Below the pieces are notes generated by a model. It worked only from the letters and a program-made list of their open reading frames with translations. It was not told the DNA's origin and searched no databases. From assembly GCA_977017645.1 (NCBI GenBank), contig OZ360239.1:39804001-39868000 (forward strand): DNA of 64,000 nucleotides, written 5' to 3'. Positions 5,647 to 63,565 of this stretch are shown one piece after another (positions within the stretch are counted from its first letter, which is position 1; each line of letters starts with the position of its first letter). The translations under genes were made by a program, and so were the position numbers. Source of the stretch: Torpedo marmorata (lineage: Eukaryota).

Positions 5647-5815
5647 TGAAATAAAAACAGAAAATGCTGGACAAATTCAGCAGGTCAGGCAACTCTGATG
5701 TTCTGATGAAGAGGTTTCAACCTGAAATGTTAACCATTTTTTCTTTCCGTAGTTGCTGCCTGACCTTCCATGTATTTCCAGCATTTTCTGTTTTTATTTC
5801 AGACTTCCAGCATCT
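5647..5815. mobile_element. Older PLE-derived fold-back element
   Basis: Arms gaaataaaaacagaaaatgctgga / tccagcattttctgtttttatttc flank a CTGATGA...GAAA motif. Confidence 0.75.
5700..5734 (+). ncRNA. Minimal type I hammerhead ribozyme motif (canonical C3 core, probably decayed)
   Basis: gtt-CTGATGA-ag-AGGTT tc AACCT-GAAA-tgtt-aac: conserved core, stem II AGGTT/AACCT, stem I gtt/aac. Confidence 0.6.
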
Positions 5816-11444: not shown

Positions 11445-11635
11445 AATGACACACGAAAGTCTGCAGACACTGTGATTGTAGTAAAAACACACAGAAATGC
11501 TGGAGGAACTCAGCCGGTCTCGCAGCGTCCACAGGAGGTAAAGATATATTATTGAAACGTCAGTAATATACGTTTACATCCTATCGATGCTGTGAGACCG
11601 GCTGAGTTCCTCCAGCATTTCTGTGTGTTTTTACT
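11445..11635. mobile_element. PLE-derived fold-back element
   Basis: Long inverted repeat (tagtaaaaacacacagaaatgctggaggaactcagccggtctc and its reverse complement); 13-bp TSD aat(a/g)tagattcag at 11432-11444 and 11636-11648. Confidence 0.9.
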
Positions 11636-12129: not shown

Positions 12130-12440
12130 GAATTGCTGGAGGAACTCAGCTGGCCAGACAGCATCCATGGGTAGAAATGGTCAGTCAAAGTTTCAGGTCT
12201 GAACCCTTTATCAAAATTAAGATTGAATATGTGAAATTACATATATAAAGGGGGAAAGAAACTGGGTAGGGGCCTAGAGGTGGTGGGACAGAAGGCATAT
12301 GAGGTAGAGAAATAGTGGAAAGGCAGATAGAGGGTGAAAAGAAAAGTTAGAGGGAGTAAAAAAGTAAGTACAGGAGTAGGTAAAGAAGAGGTGGAAACAG
12401 TGGAATCAAATGGGGTGTAGGGTTACCTAAAATTAGAAAG
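12130..12440 (-). mobile_element. Old PLE 3' end (terminal repeat plus UTR)
   Basis: tgctggaggaactcagc...tttcaggtctgaaccctttatcaa followed by a purine-rich stretch as in the other minus-strand PLE ends. Confidence 0.65.
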
Positions 12441-12609: not shown

Positions 12610-12857
12610 AAAGGTAAAGGTTCCATTATTGTCACGTAATACTACATTTAGAATGTAACATACATGAAATTCTTTAATTTTTGTCTACCGTAAGTAAGGC
12701 AGACAGAGGGTCGCTATTTTGTCCAGCGCCCCTCACAGAAACCTACAGCACCTGGTGTTCCTTGGCGGTCTCCCCTCCAAGTACTGACCAGTCCTGTGCC
12801 TGCTTAGCTTCTGAGATCAGACAATCCCAGTTGTATTCAGGCTATTGGTGCTGTAAG
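12610..12857 (-). mobile_element. 5S rRNA-derived SINE (SINE3 type) with Rex1-like tail
   Basis: Minus strand 12857-12740 reads CTTACAGC...TCTGATCTCAGAAGCTAAGCAGG...AGTACTTGGAGGGGAGACCGCCAAGGAACACCAGGTGCTGTAGG (5S-like, A and C boxes). Tail ends GACAATAATGGAACCTTTACCTTT. Confidence 0.9.
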
Positions 12858-13094
12858 AGGCTTAAATTATTACATAAAGTAAACAAATGTGCTTAAAATC
12901 AGGAAGCATAAATTTTTACAAAGTATTTTGAAATACTCATTAAATAATTTTTAAAAATAAACAGAAATACAGCAAGCACTTCACTTTTTTCATAGAGCTG
13001 GGCACTCAAATGAACGGAAATGTCCTTCTTATGCAGTAGTTGCCATTCCTGGCATAAAGCTCAGCGGTGGCTTGCAAAATGTACTCAGCTCCTT

Positions 13095-15237
13095 TCAGAA
13101 TCAGAATTTATTGTCATGAACAAGTCATGAAATTTGGTGTTTTGCGGCAGCATCATAGTGCAAACATTCATATTATTACCATCTTACGACATTACTATAA
13201 AAAAATATAAATAATAGTGCACGAAAAGTAAGTCAGTGTCTTTGGTTCATTGATTATTCAGGAATCTGATGGCAGCGGGGAAGAAGCTGTCCTTGTGCCG
13301 TTGAGTGCTCAACTTTAGGCTCCTGTACTTTTTTCCCGATGGTAGCACAGTGAAGAGGGCATGGCCTGGGTGGTGGGGGTCTTTGAGTACAGAGGCTGCT
13401 TTTTAAGACACCGTCTCGTGTAGATGTCCTCGATGGAGTGACGTCTAGTGCCTGTGATGTCACAGGCCGAGTTAACAACCCTCTGGAGTTTATTCTTGTC
13501 CTGAGAGTTGGCGCCTCCATACCAGGCAGTGATGCAACCAGCCAGAATGCTCTCCACGATACACCAGTAGAAGTTTAAGAGACTCTTTGGTAACATACCA
13601 AATCTCCTCAGACACCTCACAAAGTATAGCCGCTGGCGAGCCTTCTTTGTGATTGCATCAACGTGGAGACTCCAGGACAGATCCTCGGAGATGTTGACAC
13701 CCAGGAATTTTAGGTTCTTGACCCTCTCCACTACTGAGCCCTCAATGAGGACTGGATCATGTTCCCCTGACTTCCTCCTGAAGTCCACAATCATCTCCTT
13801 GGTTTTGCTGATGTTGAACGCAAGGTTGTTGTCGTTACACCATTCAACGAGCTGATCTATCTCATTGCCGTTTGTGATTTTGCCGACAACTGTGGTGTCA
13901 TCGGCAAATTTGTAGATGGCATTGGAATTGTGCCTGGCCACACAGTCATGGGTGTATAACGAGTAGAGCAGTGGGCTAAGCACACATCCTTGGGGTGCGC
14001 CTGTGTTGATAATCAGTGAGGAGGAGACGTTGTTTCCAGTTCGTACTGACTGTGGTCTTCCGGTGAGAAAGTCAAGGATCCAGTTGCAGAGTAGGATACA
14101 GAGGCCTAGAGTTTGTAGCTTCTTGACAAGCACTGAGAGAATAATGGTATTGAAGGCCGAGCTGTAGTCGATAAAGAGCAGCCGTATGTATGAATTGCTG
14201 TTTTCGAGGTGATCCAGAGCTGAGTGGAGAGCCAGCGATATTGCATCTGCTGTGGAGCGATTGTGGCGATAGGCGAATTGCAGTGGGTCCAGACCTTTGC
14301 TTAGGTACGTGTTAATTCTGGCCAAGACAAGCCTCTCAAAGCATTTCATCACAGTAGAAGTTAGTGCGACTGGGCGGTAGTCATTGAGGCAGCTCACACT
14401 ACTCTTCTTGGGTACCGGGATGATTGATGCCCTTTTGAAGTAGGTGGGAACCTCTGACTGCCGGAATGAGAGGTTGAAAATGTCCGTGAACACTCCGGCT
14501 AGTTGGTTGGTGCAGATTCTCAGTACCCTGCCAGGTACGCCATTAGGGCCTGACGCCTTGCGAGGGTTCACCCTCTTGAATGATGTTCTGACGTCGCCCT
14601 CAGAGACAGATATCACAGGGTCCTCAGCCTTTTCAGGGATTCTAGTAGGCACTGTTTGGTTCTTCTTCTCAAAGTGGGCATAGAAGGTGTTCAGCTCATC
14701 GGGTAGTGAGGCATCACAGCCGTCTATAGTGTTCGCCTTCGCTTTGTAGGCTGTAATGGCCTGCACTCCCTGCCATAGTTGGCGTTTATCTGTCTCTGTC
14801 TCTAGCTTCCTCCGGAATTGCCACTTTTCTTCAGAGATGGCCTTCCACAGGTCGTGCCTGGACTTCTTGTAAAGATCCCAGTCCCCGGCCTTAAACGCCC
14901 TTGTTCTCGCCCTCAGCAGGATGCGAATTCTCTGATTCATCCAGGGCTTGTGGTTGGGGAACACCTGGTATTTGCGCGTGGGCACACACTCATCCACGCA
15001 GGTCTTGATGAAGTTGGTGACACTTGTTGCATATTCATTCAGGTCTATGGATGAGTTCTTGAATATGTTCCAGTCCACCGATTCAAAGCAGTCCTGCAGA
15101 CGCTCCTCCGCCTCCATCGACCATACTTTCGCCGTCCTCACCACTGGTGCTGTGGTCTTCAGTCTCTGCTTGTACGCCGGGAGTAGAAGTACAGCCATGT
15201 GATCAGACTTGTCGAAGTGCGGTCGTGGTATGGCGTT
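13095..15237 (-). mobile_element. Rex1/Babar LINE, 5'-truncated (~2.1 kb)
   Basis: Contains the RT ORF, a 3' UTR and a (TTCTGA)n tail after GACAATAAA. Confidence 0.95.
13315..15198 (-). pseudogene. Rex1-clade reverse transcriptase ORF (627 aa, 5'-truncated, C-terminal frameshift)
   Basis: Motifs DYRPVALTSTVMKCFERL, LFIDYSSAFNTI, GAPQGCVLSPLLYSLYT, YKFADD. Only the end of the endonuclease (SDH) lies upstream, and the frame shifts near KKQPL. Confidence 0.92.
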
Positions 15238-15470
15238 TAAAAAAAAAAATTTACAAAAGAGTAGAAGCCAATTCCGGCCATTTAAATCCGTGCCGCTGAA
15301 TTACACCCAATTAATCTGCAGCCCTATATGCTTTGGAAGGTGGGAGGAAGCTGGAGTACCCAGGGAAAATCCATGCAGACATGCGGAGAATGTACAAACT
15401 CTTTACAAACAGCGTCGGATTCAAACCCAGGTCGCTGGCACTGTAATAGTGTCGTGCTATCCGTGCTAAG
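15238..15470 (-). mobile_element. V-SINE (HE1-like) abutting the assembly gap
   Basis: V-domain and B-box (GGTTTGAATCC) on the minus strand. Confidence 0.8.
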
Positions 15471-19619: not shown

Positions 19620-21250
19620 CAGTCACAGAAAGCATGGAAACAGGCCCTTCGGCCCAACTTGTCCATGGTGACTAAGTTGCTCATATGAGCTAATCCAATT
19701 TGCCTACATTTGACCCATATTCCTCTAAACCTTTCCAATCATAAACCTGTCCAAATATTTTTTTACATGTCACACTTTGAACATAACTCTACAGCTTCCT
19801 TTGGCAGCTAATTCCATTTATGCAGCATCTTCTCTGTGAAAAATCTGCCCTTCATGTCTCATTTAAATCATTCCCTCCCCTCACCTAAAGCCGATGCCCT
19901 CTAGTTTTAGACTCCCCTACCCCGGGGAAAAGACTATGATTATTTATCTATCTATGCACCTCATGATTTTATATAACTCCATAAGGAAACGCCTCAGCTT
20001 CTTGTGTTCCAGGGAAAACATTCAAGCTCATCCAGTATCCCCTTATAATTCAAGTCCGCTAGTCCTGGTAACATCATTCTGAATCTTTTTTTCACCCTTT
20101 CCAGATTAATGATATCCTGCCTATAACCAAGTGACCAGAACTTCACGTAATACTCCAAATATGGCCTCATCAATTTCTTGTACAGCTGTAACATGGCTTC
20201 CCAACTCCTGTTAAACAGGAAAGTCTGCAGATGCTGGGATTGTAGTGCAATACACAAAAGTGCTGGAGAAACTCAGCAGGTTACGTAGCATCTATAGGAA
20301 GCAAAGGGTAGTCAATGATTCGGACGTAGGCCCTTCGTCAAAGTGTGAGCAAAATGCGGCAGGCTCAGGCCCGAAACATTGGTTACCCTTTACTGCCTAT
20401 ACTGTAGATGATGCGTTACTTGCTGAGTTTCTCCAGCACCTTTGTGTATTGCACTTCTCAACTCCTGTACTCAGTGAACTGATTGAACGTCAAACTCTTA
20501 CTTCACCATCTTGTCTAGCTGTGTCATCACTTTCAGGGAACTATGTAATGATATCCCCCTGTCTCTACTACACTCTCCATTTACTGTGTAGGTCCTGCCT
20601 TGGTTTGACATAAAATGCAACAGTTTGCACTTAACCGCCATTCTCAACCCAGTTATCCAGTTGATCAAGATCCTGCTGTAGTCTGAGATAACATTTGCTA
20701 ACCTTCTTTACTGTCCATTATACCACCAATGAGTATCATCTGCATATAAATGATGAGCAATGTGGACCCAGCACTGCTCCCTGTAGCACACCACTTGTCA
20801 CAGACATACAATTTGAAAAAGAACTCCTACCATCTTTCTCTGTCTCCTTTCACCAAGCCATTTTTGTATCCAAATGGCTCGCTCATCCTGGATCCCATAT
20901 GGCCTAACCTTCCAGGCCAGTCTTCCATGCAGTACCTTGCCAAAGTCCTTGCTAGAGCCCATGTGGACAATGTCTACCACTCATCGCTCATCAATTTTCT
21001 CAGTCACCTCTCCAAAGAAATTCAATCAAATTTGTGGGACACAATTTCCCATGGAGAAAGCTACACTGACCATCCCTAATCAATCCTTGCTTATCCAAAT
21101 GCTGGCGACTCCTCAGAACCCCTCCGGTATCAGGCTCATCAGTCTGTAATTCTCACACTTGTCCTTGCAGTCTTTCTTAAATAATGGTGTAACATTAGCC
21201 ACCCTCCACACTTCCGGTACCTCAGATGTGGCTAATGATGATACAAATAT
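19620..21250 (-). mobile_element. CR1 LINE fragment (decayed)
   Basis: Translations MLQLYKKLMRPYLEYYVKFWS and DFGKVLHGRLAWKVRPYGIQ...WIQKWL; 3' tail at the low-coordinate end. Confidence 0.85.
20211..20453. mobile_element. PLE-derived fold-back element inserted in CR1
   Basis: Inverted arms; 14-bp TSD cttc(c/t)caactcctg at 20197-20210 and 20454-20467. Confidence 0.85.
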
Positions 21251-26144: not shown

Positions 26145-26868
26145 GTGAAGCACGAATGCTGTGATTGTAGTAAAAACACAGAAACGCTGGAGGAACTCTG
26201 CAGGTCTCGCAGTGTCCATAGGAGGTAAAGATCTTTTACCAAGCACTGCATCCAGTGCTCCCGCTGTCGCCTCCTCTACATCGGAGAGACTGGGCGCAGA
26301 CTGGGAGATCGCTTCGTTGAGCACCTCGGCTCTGTCCTCCGCAATAGCGTGAGTCTCCCAGTGGCCACCCATTTCAATTCCCCATCCCATTTCCTTATCG
26401 ACATGTCTGTCCATGGTCTCATGCACTGCCAGACTGAGACCACCGCAAATTGGAGAAACAACACCGCATATTCCATCTGGGCACCCTCCAACCGGATGGC
26501 ATTAACATAGACTTCTCCGGTTTCCGTTAGCCACCCTCCCTCCTCCCGTTCTTTCTCTATGTCTCCTTTCCTCTTGCTTTGTCTCTCCTTCCCTTTTCCC
26601 CTGCTCTACATTCATAGAGAAACCCCTCCCCCTCCCCCCCCCCACAATCAATTCTCACCTTTCCTCTCTCCTGGTTTCCTCGCCATATCCAATTAACACC
26701 TTTTGTCTGTTGGTCTGTACTCCTCTCCCTGCCCTTTCTTTTAATTCAGACACCTGCCTGCTTTTTACTCATACCTTGAAGAAGGGCTCAGGCCCGAAAT
26801 GTCTGTAAAAAAAATCTTTACCTCCTATAGACGCTGTGAGACCTGCTGAGTTCCTCCACTTTTGTTTT
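26145..26868 (+). mobile_element. 5'-truncated Penelope-like element with inverted terminal repeat at its 5' end
   Basis: Plus strand encodes the GIY-YIG region CIQCSRCRLLYIGETGRRLGDRFVEHL...HFNSPSH, then a pyrimidine-rich UTR and terminal repeat. An inverted terminal-repeat copy lies at 26145-26240. Degenerate TSD acag(c/t)aaa(a/c)caga. Confidence 0.9.
26772..26807 (+). ncRNA. Hammerhead-like motif in PLE terminal repeat (U3 variant)
   Basis: tacc-TTGAAGA-A-GGGC tcag GCCC-GAAA-tGTC; perfect stem II. Confidence 0.55.
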
Positions 26869-37468: not shown

Positions 37469-37626
37469 AAAAACACAATGCTGGAGAAACTCAGCGTGAC
37501 AAGCCCGAAACGTTGGTTATGTATCTTTATCTTTGCTATATAAAGTACACTGTTTGACCTGCTGAGTTTCTCCAGCATTGTTTTTACTTCAACCACAGTG
37601 TCTGCAGACTTTTGTGTTTTACTTCT
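37469..37626. mobile_element. PLE-derived fold-back element
   Basis: Inverted arms; 14-bp TSD ttcccttt(t/g)atagc at 37455-37468 and 37627-37640. Confidence 0.88.
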
Positions 37627-40222: not shown

Positions 40223-40762
40223 TGAAGAGAAAGCATTCATGCCTCTGCTGTAATTGGAATAGGCTCTAACAGATTCCATTCAATCAGAACCAAAGAATTT
40301 GTGACTATTAACTGAAGAATTAAGCTAAATTATTTTAAAGTAGTCCATTAACAATTTAACTTAGTTACAGTTTAAGCAAGGCACTGAAAACAAAAACTCT
40401 CTGTGCCTCTTCAAAGTGAATCGTCTATTGAATTTGGGCAATGAAAGAGCAGGGTTTCTCTGCTTCAATTGCGTGACATGTTGTACTTGCCAGCACAGCT
40501 TCTGCTTCATGGCCTGCCTCTCTGCTCGTGTCCCACCTCAACCAGTCAACTATTCTCCCATTTTTCTGATCTCCAAGCGTGCCATCAATGATCTATTCAA
40601 AGATCACCATTTCCAACTTATCCCAAATGTTAGCCATAAATGTCAAAAATCTTTTTATTGCTAAACTGAAATTGAAGTGCCACCTTTTACAATTGACTTG
40701 AAATAGCAAAAATAAAAAAATCAGCAAATCCCATACCCTGTCAATCAGCAAGTCTGCAGAGG

Positions 40763-40914
40763 TCATTCTGCTTATTCCTTGAAGAAGGGCTCAGGCCTGA
40801 AACGTCGGCAATATATCTTTGCTTTTTATGGACGCTGAAAAGTCCGGCTGAGTTCCCCCAGCATTTTGGTGTGTTTTTACTACAATCAGAGCATCTGCAG
40901 ACTTTCGTGTTTCA
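40763..40914 (+). mobile_element. Solo PLE terminal repeat with hammerhead-like motif (40777-40808)
   Basis: cc-TTGAAGA-AGGGCTCAGGCCT-GAAACGTC-gg; 9-bp TSD ctgcagagg at 40754-40762 and 40915-40923. Confidence 0.85.
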
Positions 40915-41624
40915 CTGCAGAGGCCCAGGGCTTGCTTCAGTGAGAATGGCTTTTTCATTGGTGGTTATCTTCAGAATCGCCAGCCTTATGACTACCCAGA
41001 TATCCCTCCCATCAGGACTCTGGTTCAGGTGCAGCCTTTTTCAGTTCCATGATTCTTGTTACATGTACTGGGATAAAGTGAGAAACAGAGTCCCAGTTAC
41101 CTCTGTTGCAGTCACTACTTATCCACATTACAAGGTGCACGTATGGAATGCAATGAATGTTGTAAATAAAAGCTCTGCTTATCTGCTCACTATTTTGGCC
41201 AAACAAAATTGTAGTAAGATATACAAAGAAGTGAAACAAAATCTATTGTTCTCAAAGTGGAAACAGAATTAGTTGGACACCTGAATATTGACACGTTGTC
41301 TCCATTCCAGAAGACTTTGAAATATGAATGTTTTGGAGGTCTACAATTACAGGACTGCATTGCTAATCTATTTTAAGGCAACTATATAAAGCTTTAAAGC
41401 TGTTCAGTACATTATAGCCGTTATGATTCAATTTTTAGTTTTGGGAACACTTAGCATGCTGAATAGAATGATGATAGGCATTAAATATGGGAGACTCTCA
41501 GACACTGTAAAATATCACCCCTGGTTTTGGCCAGAGCCAAACCTTCTGCCATAGACAGTCAGGACAAACTGGAAACTGAGCCAATGCACTCTGCCACGTG
41601 CAGCCGAGACACTGCTGAGGCCTT

Positions 41625-41764
41625 TGATGAAGGGCTCAAGCCTGAAACGTCGGTTATGTATTTCTACCTTTGCTACATAAAAGACACTGTTTGACCTGCT
41701 GAGTTCTCCAGCTTTTGTGTTTTTTACTTCAACCACGGTGTCTACAGATTTTCGTGTTTACTTT
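41625..41764 (+). mobile_element. Solo PLE terminal repeat starting at the hammerhead-like core
   Basis: (t)TGATGA-AGGGCTCAAGCCT-GAAACGTC-gg; 9-bp TSD tgaggcctt at 41616-41624 and 41765-41773. Confidence 0.85.
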
Positions 41765-45339: not shown

Positions 45340-45895
45340 AATTCAGCTAACCCACACTCCCTGTGCTCCTTTCTCACTCCTTCGGCTTCCCCATCACTCA
45401 ATTTTGTTCCCCATCTCTACCTGGTTCCATCTACCTATCATTTCCCCTTTATCTGGTTCCAACCATTCCAAATATCACCTTCTGACCTTTGTCTCTACCT
45501 CCCCGACCTGGTTCCATCTTCCCATCATCCCTCCTTTATCTGGTTCCAACCATTACCTTCCAACCTTTGTCTCTACTTTCACATCTGATTCCATCTGCTC
45601 TTCTCTCTCTCTCTTTCCTTATCTGTCCCACCAGCCACTATCTCCCAACTCTACCCCTCCATCTCACCTGGCTTCAACTGCCCATCATCTCCACCCACTC
45701 CTGGTTCCACCTGCCAGCTCTTGTTTTGCCTTCCTCCTCACCTCTCTGCTGAACACTCTCACTCGTGATGCAGGGTGTCGACCCAAAACATCAACTATCC
45801 CATGGCCTCCAGTGCTGCTGCCTGACCCATTGAGTCCCACCAGCAGTTTGCTTTTTGCTCTAGATTACAGCATTTGCAGTTTGTTGTGTCTTTTG
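45340..45895 (+). mobile_element. Old PLE 3' UTR plus terminal repeat
   Basis: Pyrimidine-rich ctggttcca repeats, then gtgatgcagggtgtcgacccaaaacatc and gctgcctgacccattgagtcccaccagca. Confidence 0.65.
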
Positions 45896-48263: not shown

Positions 48264-48960
48264 GGCACAGCCAAGGACATCACAGGCAAAACCCTCCCCA
48301 CTGTCGCAAACATCTACAGAGAACGCTGCTGTCGGAGAGCAGCAGCAATCATCAAGGATCCACACCACCCAGCACACGCTCTGTTCTCACTGCTACCATC
48401 AGGAAAGAGGTATGGGTAAAGGTAAAAGGTTAAAGGTTCCATTATTGTCACGTAATACTACATTTAGAATGTAACATACATGAAATTCTTTAATTTTTGT
48501 CTACCGTAAGGCAGTTAGAGGGTCGCTATTTTGTCCAGCGCCCCTCACAGAAACCTACAGCACCTGGTGTTCCTTGGCGGTCTCCCCTCCAAGTACTGAG
48601 CAGTCCTGTGCCTGCTTAGCTTCCAAGATCAGACAATCCCAGTCGTATTCAGGCTATTGGTGCTCGCACCACCAGATTCAGGAACAGCTGCTACCCCTCC
48701 ACCATCAGACTCCTCAACAGCAAACTCAATCAGGGACTCATTTAAGGACTCTTACTTTTGCACTTTATTGATTTTTTTCTCTCTATTGCACAGTCAGTTT
48801 GTTTACATTTCTTTATTTGTTTACATGTATTCGTATCTTCTTGAGAAGTTTTTTTTGCACTACCATTAAGTGGTAATTCTGCGTAGCCCGCAGGAAAAAG
48901 AATCTCAGGGTTGTACGTGATGTCATGAATGTACTCTGACAATAAATCTGAACTTTGACT
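48264..48960 (+). mobile_element. Rex1 3' fragment interrupted by a 5S-derived SINE
   Basis: DITGKTLPTVANIYRERCCRRAAAIIKDPHHPAHALFSLLPSGKRY; colinear with 6340-6795. Confidence 0.9.
48416..48664 (-). mobile_element. 5S rRNA-derived SINE, second copy
   Basis: Near-identical to 12610-12852; lacks the first few 5S bases. Confidence 0.9.
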
Positions 48961-55203: not shown

Positions 55204-57155
55204 AGAGTGAAACACAAAAGTTTACAGATGCTGTGATTGTAGTGAAAACAAGACTGCTGGAGGAACTCAGCAGGTATTGCGGTGTCCATTGGAGGTAAAA
55301 ATATATAACTAATGTTTCGGGCCTGAGCTCTTCTTCAAGGTATGAACAGAGACTAGGCAGGCGTCTGAATAAAAAGGCTGGGGGAGAAGGGAAGAAAAGG
55401 CAGAGGAAGGAGCACAGGCTAACAGACAAAAGGCGATAATTGGACATGGATAGGAGGACAAGAGAGGAAAGGTGAGAATTGATCAGGGAAAGGAGAAGGA
55501 GTGACTGTGAAAGCAGAGCTGAAGGAAAGGAGACAGAGGGAAAGGAGAAAAGAGAGAGAGAGAGAGAGAGAGAAAGCTGGAGGAAAGGATAAATAGGAAT
55601 AGGGGAAGGGGAGAGACAGGGAAGGGGGTTGTGTCTGACGAAAACCGGAGAAGTCGATGTAAATGAAGGGTTGGAGGATGCCCAGATGCATTATGAGGTG
55701 TTGTTCCTCCAATCTGTGGGTGGTCTCAGTCTGGCAGTACATGAGACCATGGACAGACATGTTGGCATGGGAACGGGGCGGGGAATTGAAATGTGTTGCC
55801 ACTAGGAGATTCTTGCTTTGCGGCAGACGAGCAAAGGTGCTCGACAATGCGATCTCCCAGTCTGTGTCCAGTCACTCTAATGCAGAGGAGACCACAACGG
55901 GAGCACTGGATGCAGTAGATGACCCCTGCAGATTCACAAGTGAAGTGTTGCCTCACTTGGAAGGACTGTTTGGGGCCCCAAATGGTGGTGGGGGAGGAGA
56001 TGTGGGCTCAAGTGTAGCACTTCCTGTGGTCACAGGGGTAGGTGCTAGGGGCCGATTGGTGGGAAGGGAGGAGTGGATGAGGGAGTCATGGAGGAAGCAG
56101 TCCCAGCGGAAGGCAAAGAGGGGAGGAAGAGGAAGATGTGTCTGGTGGTGGGATCACGTAGTAGGTGGTGAAAATTGAGGAAGATGATCTGTTGGATGCG
56201 GAGGCTGGTGGGATGGTAGGTGAGGACAAGGGGAATTCTGTCCTAGTTGTGCGTGGGGGCAAAGGGGACCAGGGCAGATATGCGGGTAATGGAGGATATC
56301 TGGGTGAGGGCTGAATTGATGGTAGTAGAGGGGAACCCATGTTTTTTGAAGAAGGAGGACATCTCGGATGATCTCGCATGAAAGACCTTGTATTGGGAGC
56401 AGATGTGACAGAGACAGGGGAATTGAAAGAAAGGAAAGGAATCCTAACAGGGGACAGGGTGTGAAGAGATGTAGTCAATGTATCTGTGGAAATTTGTGGG
56501 TTTGTAGTAAATGTCTGTTGAGAGTTTGTCACCCGAGATGGAGACAGATGGATCGAGAAAGGGGAGAGTGTTGCTAGAGATGGACCAAGTGAATTTGAGG
56601 TCAGGGTGGAAGTTGGCTGCAAAGTGGATAAAGTGGACAAGCTCATACACTGCCAGACTGAGACTACATGCAAATTGGAGGAACAGCTCATATTCTGTCT
56701 GGGCACCATCCAACAGAATGGCATTAACACCGACTTCTCTGGTTTCTATTAGCCCTCCTCCCTTCTACCCCTATTTTTCCTTTAGCTCTCTCTCTCTCTC
56801 TCCTCCCCTTTCCCTCTGTCTCCTTTCCTCCAGTTCTTCATTCACAGAGCCACCCCCTCCCCTGATCAATTCTCACCTTTCCTCTCCTGTCCACCTATCC
56901 ATGTCCAATTATCACGCTTTGTCTGCTGCCCAGACATAATATGAGCTGTTGTTCTTCCAATTTTCACGTAGTCTCTCAGTCTGGCAGTGCTCCTCCTCCT
57001 GCCCTTTCTTCTCTTCTCCCCCACCTTTTTTATTCAGGCACCTGCCTGCTTTTCGCTCATACCTTGAAGAAGGGAACAGGTCTGAAACGTTCGTTATATA
57101 TCTTTACCTCCTGTGGACACTGCGAGACATGCTGAGTTCCTCCTGCATTCTTGTG
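55204..57155 (-). mobile_element. Penelope-like element (RT C-terminus + GIY-YIG + 3' end on minus) joined to an inverted copy of its 3' end
   Basis: Minus peptides FHPDLKFTWSIS..LPFLD..KLSTDIYYKPT..YIDYISSHP and FTCESAGVIYCIQCSRCG; plus-strand 3' end at ~56642-57155. Confidence 0.9.
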
Positions 57156-57508
57156 CTTTTATATTTCTTACTTCAGATGAACATATCTAAAAAGAAACTG
57201 AAAGTAGTCAATTTACCCAATCTATTTAAGACAACATTTAACCTCCAGAATCTCAAAACAGTTTAATAACATCTGTACCCATATTACATTTATCCTTTTT
57301 CCTCATCCATTCAGACCCCTCAATGGAATGTAATTCCGACAAGTTGTCCCAGACAACAAGTAAAAGGCTGATCTCTTACAAATGGCAGTACAACACATTG
57401 ATTATTAAACATCAAACTGGTGCAATTCATAAGCTACACATATTGTGATAGTGCACATTTCGCATTAACTGCTTTAAGTATTTACTTAAACAGCAGCAGT
57501 GAGAGTTT

Positions 57509-59754: not shown

Positions 59755-60330
59755 AGAAGAGACAGCAGATGCTGGAATCTGGAGCAAAAAACAGACTGCT
59801 GGAGGAACTCAAAAGATCTTCGAGCATCTGTCGGGGGAAGGAATTAATGATGTTTCAGGTCAAGACCATGCATCAGGACTGAAAGTGGAAAATGGAAGAC
59901 AGACAATATAAGGAGGAGAGGGTGAAGGGGTGAGACAGGAGCCGGTAAATGATAGGGTGAAGAACAATGGGCACATGGAACCAGATGGGGGAGGAGGGGC
60001 AGAGTTGGAAGATAGAGTCGTGGGTGATAGGTGGAAGTGGAGAATTAAAAACAAAGGCAGAGAGAGCCAGGGAACGATGAAGACAGCTACTGCATGGTGA
60101 TCAGTAGGGACACTGCTGGTCTAGAAGCCTGATAAGGAAGGTGAAAATGGGAGTCCTTAAGGGGGAGATGAAGGGTGGATGGGGGAGGATCTGGCAGATG
60201 AAATGTGTGGGTAGTAGGTGGATGGAACCAGCAGGGAGAGGAGTAGGAGAATGAAAATTGGTGATGGGAAGGCTGAAAGGGGTAAAGGAAGTGGAACAAA
60301 AATGGGAGGAATACATGTGGATCCAAAGTG
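59755..60330 (-). mobile_element. Old PLE terminal repeat plus UTR
   Basis: gcagatgctggaatctggagcaaaaaacagactgctggaggaactc; minus strand cctgatgcatggtcttgacctgaaacatc; mirror of 45340-45895. Confidence 0.7.
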
Positions 60331-63202: not shown

Positions 63203-63565
63203 AATAAAAACAAAAATACTGGAAACAATCTGCATCTCAGCCAGCATCTGTGGATCAAGAAACAGAGTTAATGTTTCAGGTAGAGGACCCTTCAGATGCT
63301 GCATAGCTTGTGAGTGTTTCCAGCATTTGGTTTTTATTTCAGATGCCCAGCATCTGCATTTTTTAAATTTTGTGCACTGTTGTCTCCAATGTTTTCTACA
63401 GAATTATGCTTTGAAACCCCAACATTTCTCAGTAAAGGGTTTCCACCCCAAACATCGACCAATTACTTCTGCCCATGGATTCTGCCTGCCCTGCAGGGTT
63501 CCTGCAGAATTCCTCCAGGTCCTGATTGTTTGCTCAATATTCCAGCTCCTGCAGTTTTCGTGTTA
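63203..63565. mobile_element. Old PLE-derived fold-back (63203-63365) plus an adjacent terminal-repeat remnant
   Basis: aataaaaacaaaaatactggaaaca / tgtttccagcatttggtttttatt arms; a second remnant follows from ~63430. Confidence 0.65.

Follow-up and report, generated by a model that had tools for sequence, protein, structure and literature searches.

A U3·G8 variant of the minimal hammerhead motif in the terminal repeats of Penelope-like elements in Torpedo marmorata

The window analyzed here, a 64,000-nucleotide stretch of Torpedo marmorata DNA, contains on its plus strand, at 40773..40813, a sequence that reads as a minimal type I hammerhead motif with a U3·G8 core and that falls into subfamily D of the repeat family described below. 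Written out, the motif is uauucc-UUGAAGA-A-GGGC-UCAG-GCCU-GAAA-CG-UC-ggcaaua. The core lies at 40779-40785 (U3 at 40779), stem II at 40787-40798, and the GAAA-CG-UC segment at 40799-40806, with C17 at 40806 and the predicted cut at 40806/40807. The stem I arms, at 40773-40778 and 40807-40813, pair as uauucc/gg(c)aaua with a single C bulged, and stem II contains a G10.1·U11.1 pair, which is the pattern of CpG decay. The preliminary description had quoted a consensus with acc/ggt as stem I; this does not apply to the copy described here, in which 11.1 is U, and the consensus matched none of the window copies exactly. The motif is carried by a 5'-truncated terminal-repeat fragment on the plus strand at 40760..40915 (ends approximate; profile match 40768-40875). 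An Rfam scan of the window with E values up to 10 gave 28 matches, none of them to hammerhead families, as expected for a motif without stem III. Judged from its sequence and setting, the motif is real: it is a type I hammerhead of the minimal form, and it sits in a terminal repeat that belongs to an endonuclease-positive Penelope-like element (PLE). A C3-G8 or other Watson-Crick core pair (CUGANGA) was absent from this copy and from subfamilies A-D, E2, and G, all with U3·G8; such a pair was present in E1, E3, F, I, J, and K (C-G) and in H (U-A). Thus, with its U3·G8 pair, the motif is a core variant of the minimal hammerhead and not a canonical member.

The recurrence of the motif in the window, which had been described before, stood in amended form as the following related copies (motif positions in brackets). 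A fragment of subfamily A, the youngest, lies at 41622..41763 on the plus strand with 96% identity to a full unit (U3·G8 at 41624+; G10.1·U11.1; 5' stem I arm gone). Two copies are joined to coding remnants: at 26245..26868 (plus strand), a GIY-YIG end at 26245-26525 is followed by a U3·G8 motif of subfamily C (26776+), and at 55206..56646 (minus strand), RT and endonuclease pieces at 55669-56646 are followed by a decayed U3·G8 motif (55338-). Another subfamily C terminal-repeat fragment, with U3·G8 and a broken stem II, is found at 57053..57159 on the plus strand (57064+), and the copies at 26776, 55338, and 57064 all have additional stem or core changes. A decayed E-type fragment on the minus strand at 20245..20356 combines U3·G8 with C7 (20341-) and has an inverted partner at 20362-20454. 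The copy near 12185, previously taken as a decayed form, is not merely decayed: it is an older subfamily H1 fragment at 12131..12221 on the minus strand with a U3-A8 core (12214-). The fragment at 5688..5794 on the plus strand has, as claimed, a canonical C3-G8 core with different stems (5703+) and an inverted partner at 5654-5693, but it belongs to the old and distant subfamily K and is not a direct ancestor. Old subfamily J is represented by a decayed fragment at 45755..45860 on the plus strand, with G at position 3 where the subfamily majority has C3 (45765+), and by a fragment with C3-G8 at 59782..59883 on the minus strand (59876-). A further decayed, partly deleted copy lies on the minus strand near 63290 (~63290-). 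The J majority reads CUGAUG-C-A, with a C between G8 and the next A that could be either an insertion or A9C. Stumps of terminal repeats form inverted pairs at 5654-5794, 11486-11629, 20245-20454, and 37469-37585, a layout known for PLE insertions (PMC8557442). The motifs at 40779 and 41624 share the plus strand at a distance of 845 nt and could in principle pair within one transcript; against such pairing, both have G10.1·U11.1 and the latter lacks its 5' stem I arm. Overall, the window copies are likely inactive, decayed stumps, and dispersed self-cleavage in host transcripts from these decayed, mostly unpaired copies appears unlikely.

The window also holds two 5S rRNA-like matches from the Rfam scan, both on the minus strand, at 12740-12858 (55.8 bits) and 48552-48661 (30.7 bits), which are possibly 5S-derived SINE heads or pseudogenes. 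The former lies about 460 nt beyond the 3' end of an RT open reading frame (ORF) on the same strand. A 661-amino-acid open frame at 13318-15300 on the minus strand matches RVT_1 (E 1e-31), with a PF09004 match directly behind, and on these domain matches is a LINE-type element unrelated to the PLE.

Long copies of the carrier element contain an ORF with an RT (YIDD) plus a GIY-YIG domain at its C-terminal end, and the stop codon of the frame lies about 190 nt upstream of the motif. The Pfam matches of this ORF were all slightly below the Pfam cutoffs (RVT_1, E 1e-6 and 5e-6; GIY-YIG, E 2.5e-4 and 9e-4), and the RT and GIY-YIG motifs were visible in the translation. A C-X4-CxxC linker of Neptune type is visible between RT and endonuclease in the long copies; a CX2-5CxxC linker in that place is, next to RT phylogeny, a feature of the Neptune clade of PLEs (PMC8557442), to which the element may belong. 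Two 9.5-kb stretches show head-to-tail units with a motif in every junction, and each stretch holds three motifs, spaced 3.9 to 4.3 kb apart. The family shows what is typical of endonuclease-positive PLEs: a single ORF with RT and GIY-YIG, tandem units forming pLTRs, and inverted 5'-truncated partners. At ORF starts, the motif was located about 175 nt before the ATG in 10 of 12 stretches (14 of the 40 matches listed, with 97 to 100% identity to the query), always with U3·G8. Thus, the most recently amplified coding lineage has the wobble in both repeats of its tandem 3.9-kb units, and the placement of the minimal hammerhead in PLE terminal repeats, proposed before from the letters of the window, was borne out by the ORF upstream and by the motifs in unit junctions and before the ATG. 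Coding constraint on the core was rejected, since the motif lies outside the ORF, about 190 nt beyond its stop and about 175 nt before its start; an ATG across positions 6 to 8 opens just 17 codons and is missing when N7 is A. In subfamilies A and B, A6-U7-G8 opens this 17-codon upstream frame before the main ORF (L358:903 and L359:849, reverse strand). Cleavage would remove the frame, and types with N7=A lack it.

Searches of the 6.2-Gb genome gave 77,117 exact matches to the GGGC/GCCC form compared with 0 for a reversed-pattern control, and only 734 of these matches had C3. With stem II left free, U3 cores numbered 140,458 (control, 728) and C3 cores 6,446 (control, 1,306); these patterns demand an intact CpG and therefore favor young copies. 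The subfamilies come from 355 distinct copies clustered on sequence downstream of the cut site only, and subfamily counts were taken from a 1.11-Mb sample and pattern-picked loci. In 111 evenly spaced 10-kb stretches, the young subfamilies A-D made up 53 of 108 classified copies, and a rough extrapolation from these stretches gives 3 × 10^5 copies. Mean divergence from the subfamily majority was lowest in A (2.8%), followed by D (5.2%), B (7.3%), and C (10.4%); the values for the other subfamilies were 11% (E), 12% (F), 11 to 17% (G), 12 to 18% (H), 18% (I), 21% (K), and 22% (J).

Among core-holding copies that were not picked by a core-fixing pattern, U3·G8 was found in 33/35 copies of A, 21/24 of B, 16/18 of C, and 5/6 of D, U3-A8 in 16/18 of H1 and 9/13 of H2, and C3-G8 in 6/8 of I. 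With positions 3 to 8 left free, we scored by eye the first 100 matches listed for three older subfamilies. Subfamily H (1,679 matches) had 77 U-A, 8 U·G, 6 C·A, 1 C-G, and 8 others; subfamily G (938 matches) had 46 U·G, 26 U-A, 14 C-G, 3 C·A, and 11 others; and subfamily F (1,031 matches) had 80 C-G, 10 C·A, 7 U·G, and 3 others. All three pairable 3-8 states have been amplified, and the C·A mismatch is the majority in no subfamily. In F, 6 of 9 copies had raised the suspicion that a C3·A8 family was amplified; with 10 C·A rows among the 100 F matches listed, this found no support. Position 4 is C as well in about one-third of the H rows among the first 100 listed, and U3-A8 lineages with this second core change comprise H2 and part of G (e.g., L288:1499 and L266:1499); the position-4 variants appear as TCG, TTG, and TCA forms, typical of CpG decay. 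In contigs from two public runs (X8 and X9), which may come from the same or a close species and whose RNA label was guessed, C3 was below 10%, and all counted T>C rows were assigned to other places. The claim that U3·G8 is fixed in the young subfamilies thus agrees with the 140,458 U3 against 6,446 C3 cores and with U·G in 33 of 35 A copies. The equation of U3 with younger copies holds for the dominant clade but not in general, since older U3·G8 and U3-A8 subfamilies with 11 to 18% divergence exist.

The origin of U3 in the young clade was examined with 30 E-type loci chosen without constraint on the 5' arm or on positions 3 to 8. Compared with the C3 types E1 and E3, the U3 type E2, which is basal to A-D (tree support, 93/93), differs by one additional base directly before UGA. 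A one-base shift gave the better alignment of upstream majorities in 18 of 18 comparisons and was favored by 6 of 8 E1 and 2 of 5 E3 copies, with one copy of each against it and the rest ties. The young-clade U3 therefore looks like a one-base insertion with a register shift of stem I, the old C3 now being position 2.1. The variant had been described as a C3-to-U change; the U3 is there, but a plain substitution is not what the alignments suggest. Stem I of E1 and E3 is predicted to be more stable with C3 drawn into it, so that an extra base would give back a free position 3. A single U insertion would be the shortest path to the young U3, and a C insertion followed by C-to-U is a possible alternative. 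The other register, in which C3 stays in place and the core gains a U, was rejected: stem I was worse in five of six young majorities, the sixth was unscorable, and A has no C there. In subfamilies G and H, U3 stands in the old register, and trees of majorities with positions 3, 4, and 8 masked placed three changes at position 3. These trees were built from short alignments, and a 96-copy tree resolved few deep forks. A single clade of all U3 types had an AU p of 0.031 with 12 majorities and of 0.09 with 11, and separate U3 origins are therefore likely.

Among copies collected with a pattern that partly fixes the core and stem II, none of the 21 core, stem II, and palindrome positions varied between the six young subfamily majorities. 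Of the free positions within the motif, 3 of 7 did (p=0.011), and so did 62 of the 105 columns in the flanks (59%). The same invariance was seen in majorities clustered on downstream sequence alone. U4, G5, A6, G8, and A9, as well as G12, A13, A14, A15.1, and the NUH triplet, were invariant in the six young majorities, while N7 and N17 varied. The palindrome ACGU (15.2-16.2), in place of stem III, was in all young majorities, and G10.1-C11.1 and one extra base after A9 were present in subfamily majorities (G·U in the copy at 40773..40813). Stem I has lengthened, from three predicted pairs in the basal E2 and in C2 to six in A, B, and D, and its pair 2.6-1.7 is C-G in 43 of 54 A and B copies; in D, it is U-A in all six copies.

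Pairing was scored in 25 representative copies, which are related rows chosen as closest to their majorities; because the subfamilies are related, the counts are not independent events. The 3-8 pair was U·G in 15, C-G in 6, and U-A in 4 of them, with no mismatch. Pair 2.2-1.2 was C-G in 11, U-A in 10, U·G in 2, and other in 2, and pair 10.4-11.4 was C-G in 17, U-A in 3, and U·G in 3. Overall, 91% of cells paired, compared with at most 48% in slid controls, and 17 cells were changed on both sides, a value reached by 0 of 500 shuffles; the number of pairs with double-sided change, three, was not above shuffles. Cognate stem I arms were better than swapped arms across 12 subfamilies (permutation p=0.003); within the young six, where one arm was spoiled by a CpG-decayed majority, 108 of 720 permutations were equally good. 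The expected covariation of the open stem I and of stem II across subfamilies was thus found, with both C-G and U-A at 2.2-1.2 and at 10.4-11.4. The fold still seems to be selected, because core and stem positions did not change (0/21) while the flanks did, and because stem I lengthened. The suggestion that the ribozyme is no longer needed fits poorly with this invariance of the core and stems and with the longer stem I that followed the arrival of U3.

A second block 3' of the motif, at 40840-40868 of the window (35 to 60 nt beyond the cut site), shows a conservation across subfamilies close to that of the hammerhead core, with runs of eight invariant columns in the young majorities. It is a candidate for RT recognition. 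As this block is conserved too, conservation alone is no proof of catalysis. The compensating A8 was at background level in the young clade (1,825 copies, compared with 1,169 for the lethal-type G5A). A8 was never amplified in the young lineage, and restoration of a Watson-Crick pair was therefore not strongly favored. The cut site is intact in nearly all copies, which means that their templates were uncut or religated. Junctions were inspected in 1,272 A-type copies without the core AAA. Among the first 100 listed, of which about 10 are indels and not truncations, 6 to 9 rows by eye started at 1.1, while other positions had about 5 starts each, with a maximum of 12; this is no pile-up at the cut site. 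Folding prediction gave core-sequestering folds that were more stable than the hammerhead dimer in 10 of 10 copies, as monomer and dimer and with C3 types included, and U3 and C3 types could not be told apart by the folding energies of their dimers. The predicted sequestering folds are in line with a need for help.

The reading that we favor, with a probability of roughly 0.55, is that the ribozyme of the dominant young lineage is attenuated and depends on helpers, while selection still acts on its structure. The attenuation is inferred by analogy with published mutants. When a type III hammerhead was fully mutagenized, the 3-8 pair was rescued by the G-C swap alone and other single and double mutants of the core region were low (PMC9901934), so that U3-A8 would be low too in that construct; in contrast to this implication, U3-A8 is cited as active in PMC3088659. 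The main rival, which we think possible but unlikely, is that U3·G8 RNA no longer cuts and that its fold persists because it serves as a structural signal, such as a binding site for the element's protein in RNP assembly or priming. The weakness of C3U-type mutants in vitro (PMC9901934) would fit such a loss, as would the finding that catalytic mutants were without effect on Anolis insertion in vitro (PMC11167929). The lack of an A8 rescue among more than 140,000 copies and of a junction pile-up at the cut site among the first 100 listed points the same way. A purely structural role agrees less well with the invariance of the NUH triplet and of G5, A6, G8, A9, G12, A13, and A14 next to variation at N7 and N17, on which catalysis makes no demand, or with a 3-8 pair that is pairable in every subfamily majority. 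This pair is known only from the catalytic conformation, in keeping with the type III mutagenesis (PMC9901934).

We give little credence to the opposite idea, that the longer stem I, dimer contacts, or the protein make up in full for the wobble in vivo, with activity near that of the C3 form. Stem I did lengthen after U3 arose, and U3·G8 was amplified in at least two lineages; however, copies that nearly all span an intact cut site imply uncut or religated templates, and published core mutants were weak (PMC9901934). Just as improbable to us is a dead relic riding on successful master elements, its sequence conserved because of some role of the DNA itself, such as an internal promoter, or because the time for divergence was short. 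PLE promoters do lie within the terminal repeat (PMC6765202), hammerheads may parasitize PLEs (PMC8557442), and the covariation comes from few independent events, but compensatory changes occurred in stems I and II and at 3-8, and 59% of the flanking columns changed over the same branches.

For the attenuated, helper-dependent ribozyme, we propose that stem III arises when two copies within a transcript pair by way of the ACGU palindrome, that the U3·G8 wobble lowers the cleavage rate, and that cutting would require either a dimer or the protein of the element itself. Residual cleavage, in 5' processing of read-through RNA or in turnover, would be what selection keeps. New insertions would likely be copied from uncut RNA, and the 3' start site of reverse transcription would remain attached to the ORF because cleavage is slow. 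More speculatively, and with doubt prevailing on our side, PLE lineages may tune the ribozyme through the 3-8 pair, with repeated moves between C-G, U·G, and U-A; the register-shifted U3 lineage would then have become dominant because slower cutting leaves the start of reverse transcription on coding RNA. If true, retrotransposition would be throttled by a hammerhead whose wobble core is natural and selected. As to why PLEs keep hammerheads, cleavage was dispensable in one in vitro study, and some clades lack the motif. This one genome offers matched natural alleles of the tertiary 3-8 pair (C-G, U·G, and U-A) in related subfamilies that were once or recently active, and its near-intact autonomous elements carry the wobble; from the activities of these alleles one could learn if activity and the success of an element go together. 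Searches with descriptors that require C3 may miss large families, here with 140,458 exact matches.

The U3·G8 variant itself is already in print and is not unprecedented: Fig. S3 of Cervera and De la Pena 2014 (PMC4209133) gives one PLE-linked sequence of this kind, from the acorn worm Saccoglossus kowalevskii (1). Our literature search found no study devoted to a natural U3·G8 PLE hammerhead, although Lunse 2017 or 3-8 mutagenesis papers may describe the variant, and none devoted to PLE hammerheads of sharks or rays; the available text of PMC3884650, PMC6257768, and PMC6155905 contains nothing on U3·G8. For PLE minimal hammerheads, weak cleavage was reported for dimers and none for monomers, and Schistosoma was described as having U3-A8 (PMC4209133). 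Naiad PLEs have spread without canonical hammerheads (PMC8557442). In the Poseidon element PAc of Anolis carolinensis, the hammerhead cut only with the PLE protein (Frangieh et al. 2024, PMC11167929). In the same report, uncut RNA was the main insertion template, cleavage was dispensable for insertion in vitro, and RNA ends at the cut site were not found.

With PAc, the Torpedo motif shares a pLTR hammerhead placed immediately upstream of the start of reverse transcription; PAc, however, has a canonical C3-G8 pair and an ORF that begins at stem II (PMC11167929), whereas the Torpedo motif is noncoding and lies about 175 nt before the main ATG. Natural core variants have been collected (Perreault et al. 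2011, PMC3088659; PMC7151607), among them U3-A8 covariation, U4C, and insertions beside position 3, which slow cleavage; one halophile variant is written with U3 and G8 plus a two-base insertion. Those variants are rare single loci in microbes and phages, while the Torpedo variants belong to retroelement families of 10^5 copies. Non-LTR retrozymes carry type I hammerheads related to those of PLE pLTRs, but they are short noncoding tandem units with a hammerhead each (bioRxiv 10.64898/2026.07.22.740005), and the window copies are dispersed truncated ends of a coding PLE. The closest relatives are the metazoan PLE minimal hammerheads (PMC4209133), which have in common with the Torpedo motif the type I topology, the palindrome in place of stem III, the pLTR location, the extra base between 9 and 10.1, and G10.1-C11.1. 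Among the sequences listed there, U3·G8 is a single entry given without comment or assay, and cartilaginous fish are not listed; in Torpedo marmorata, U3·G8 is the dominant state of the autonomous lineage, and the same genome also holds subfamilies with C3-G8 and with U3-A8 that were amplified.
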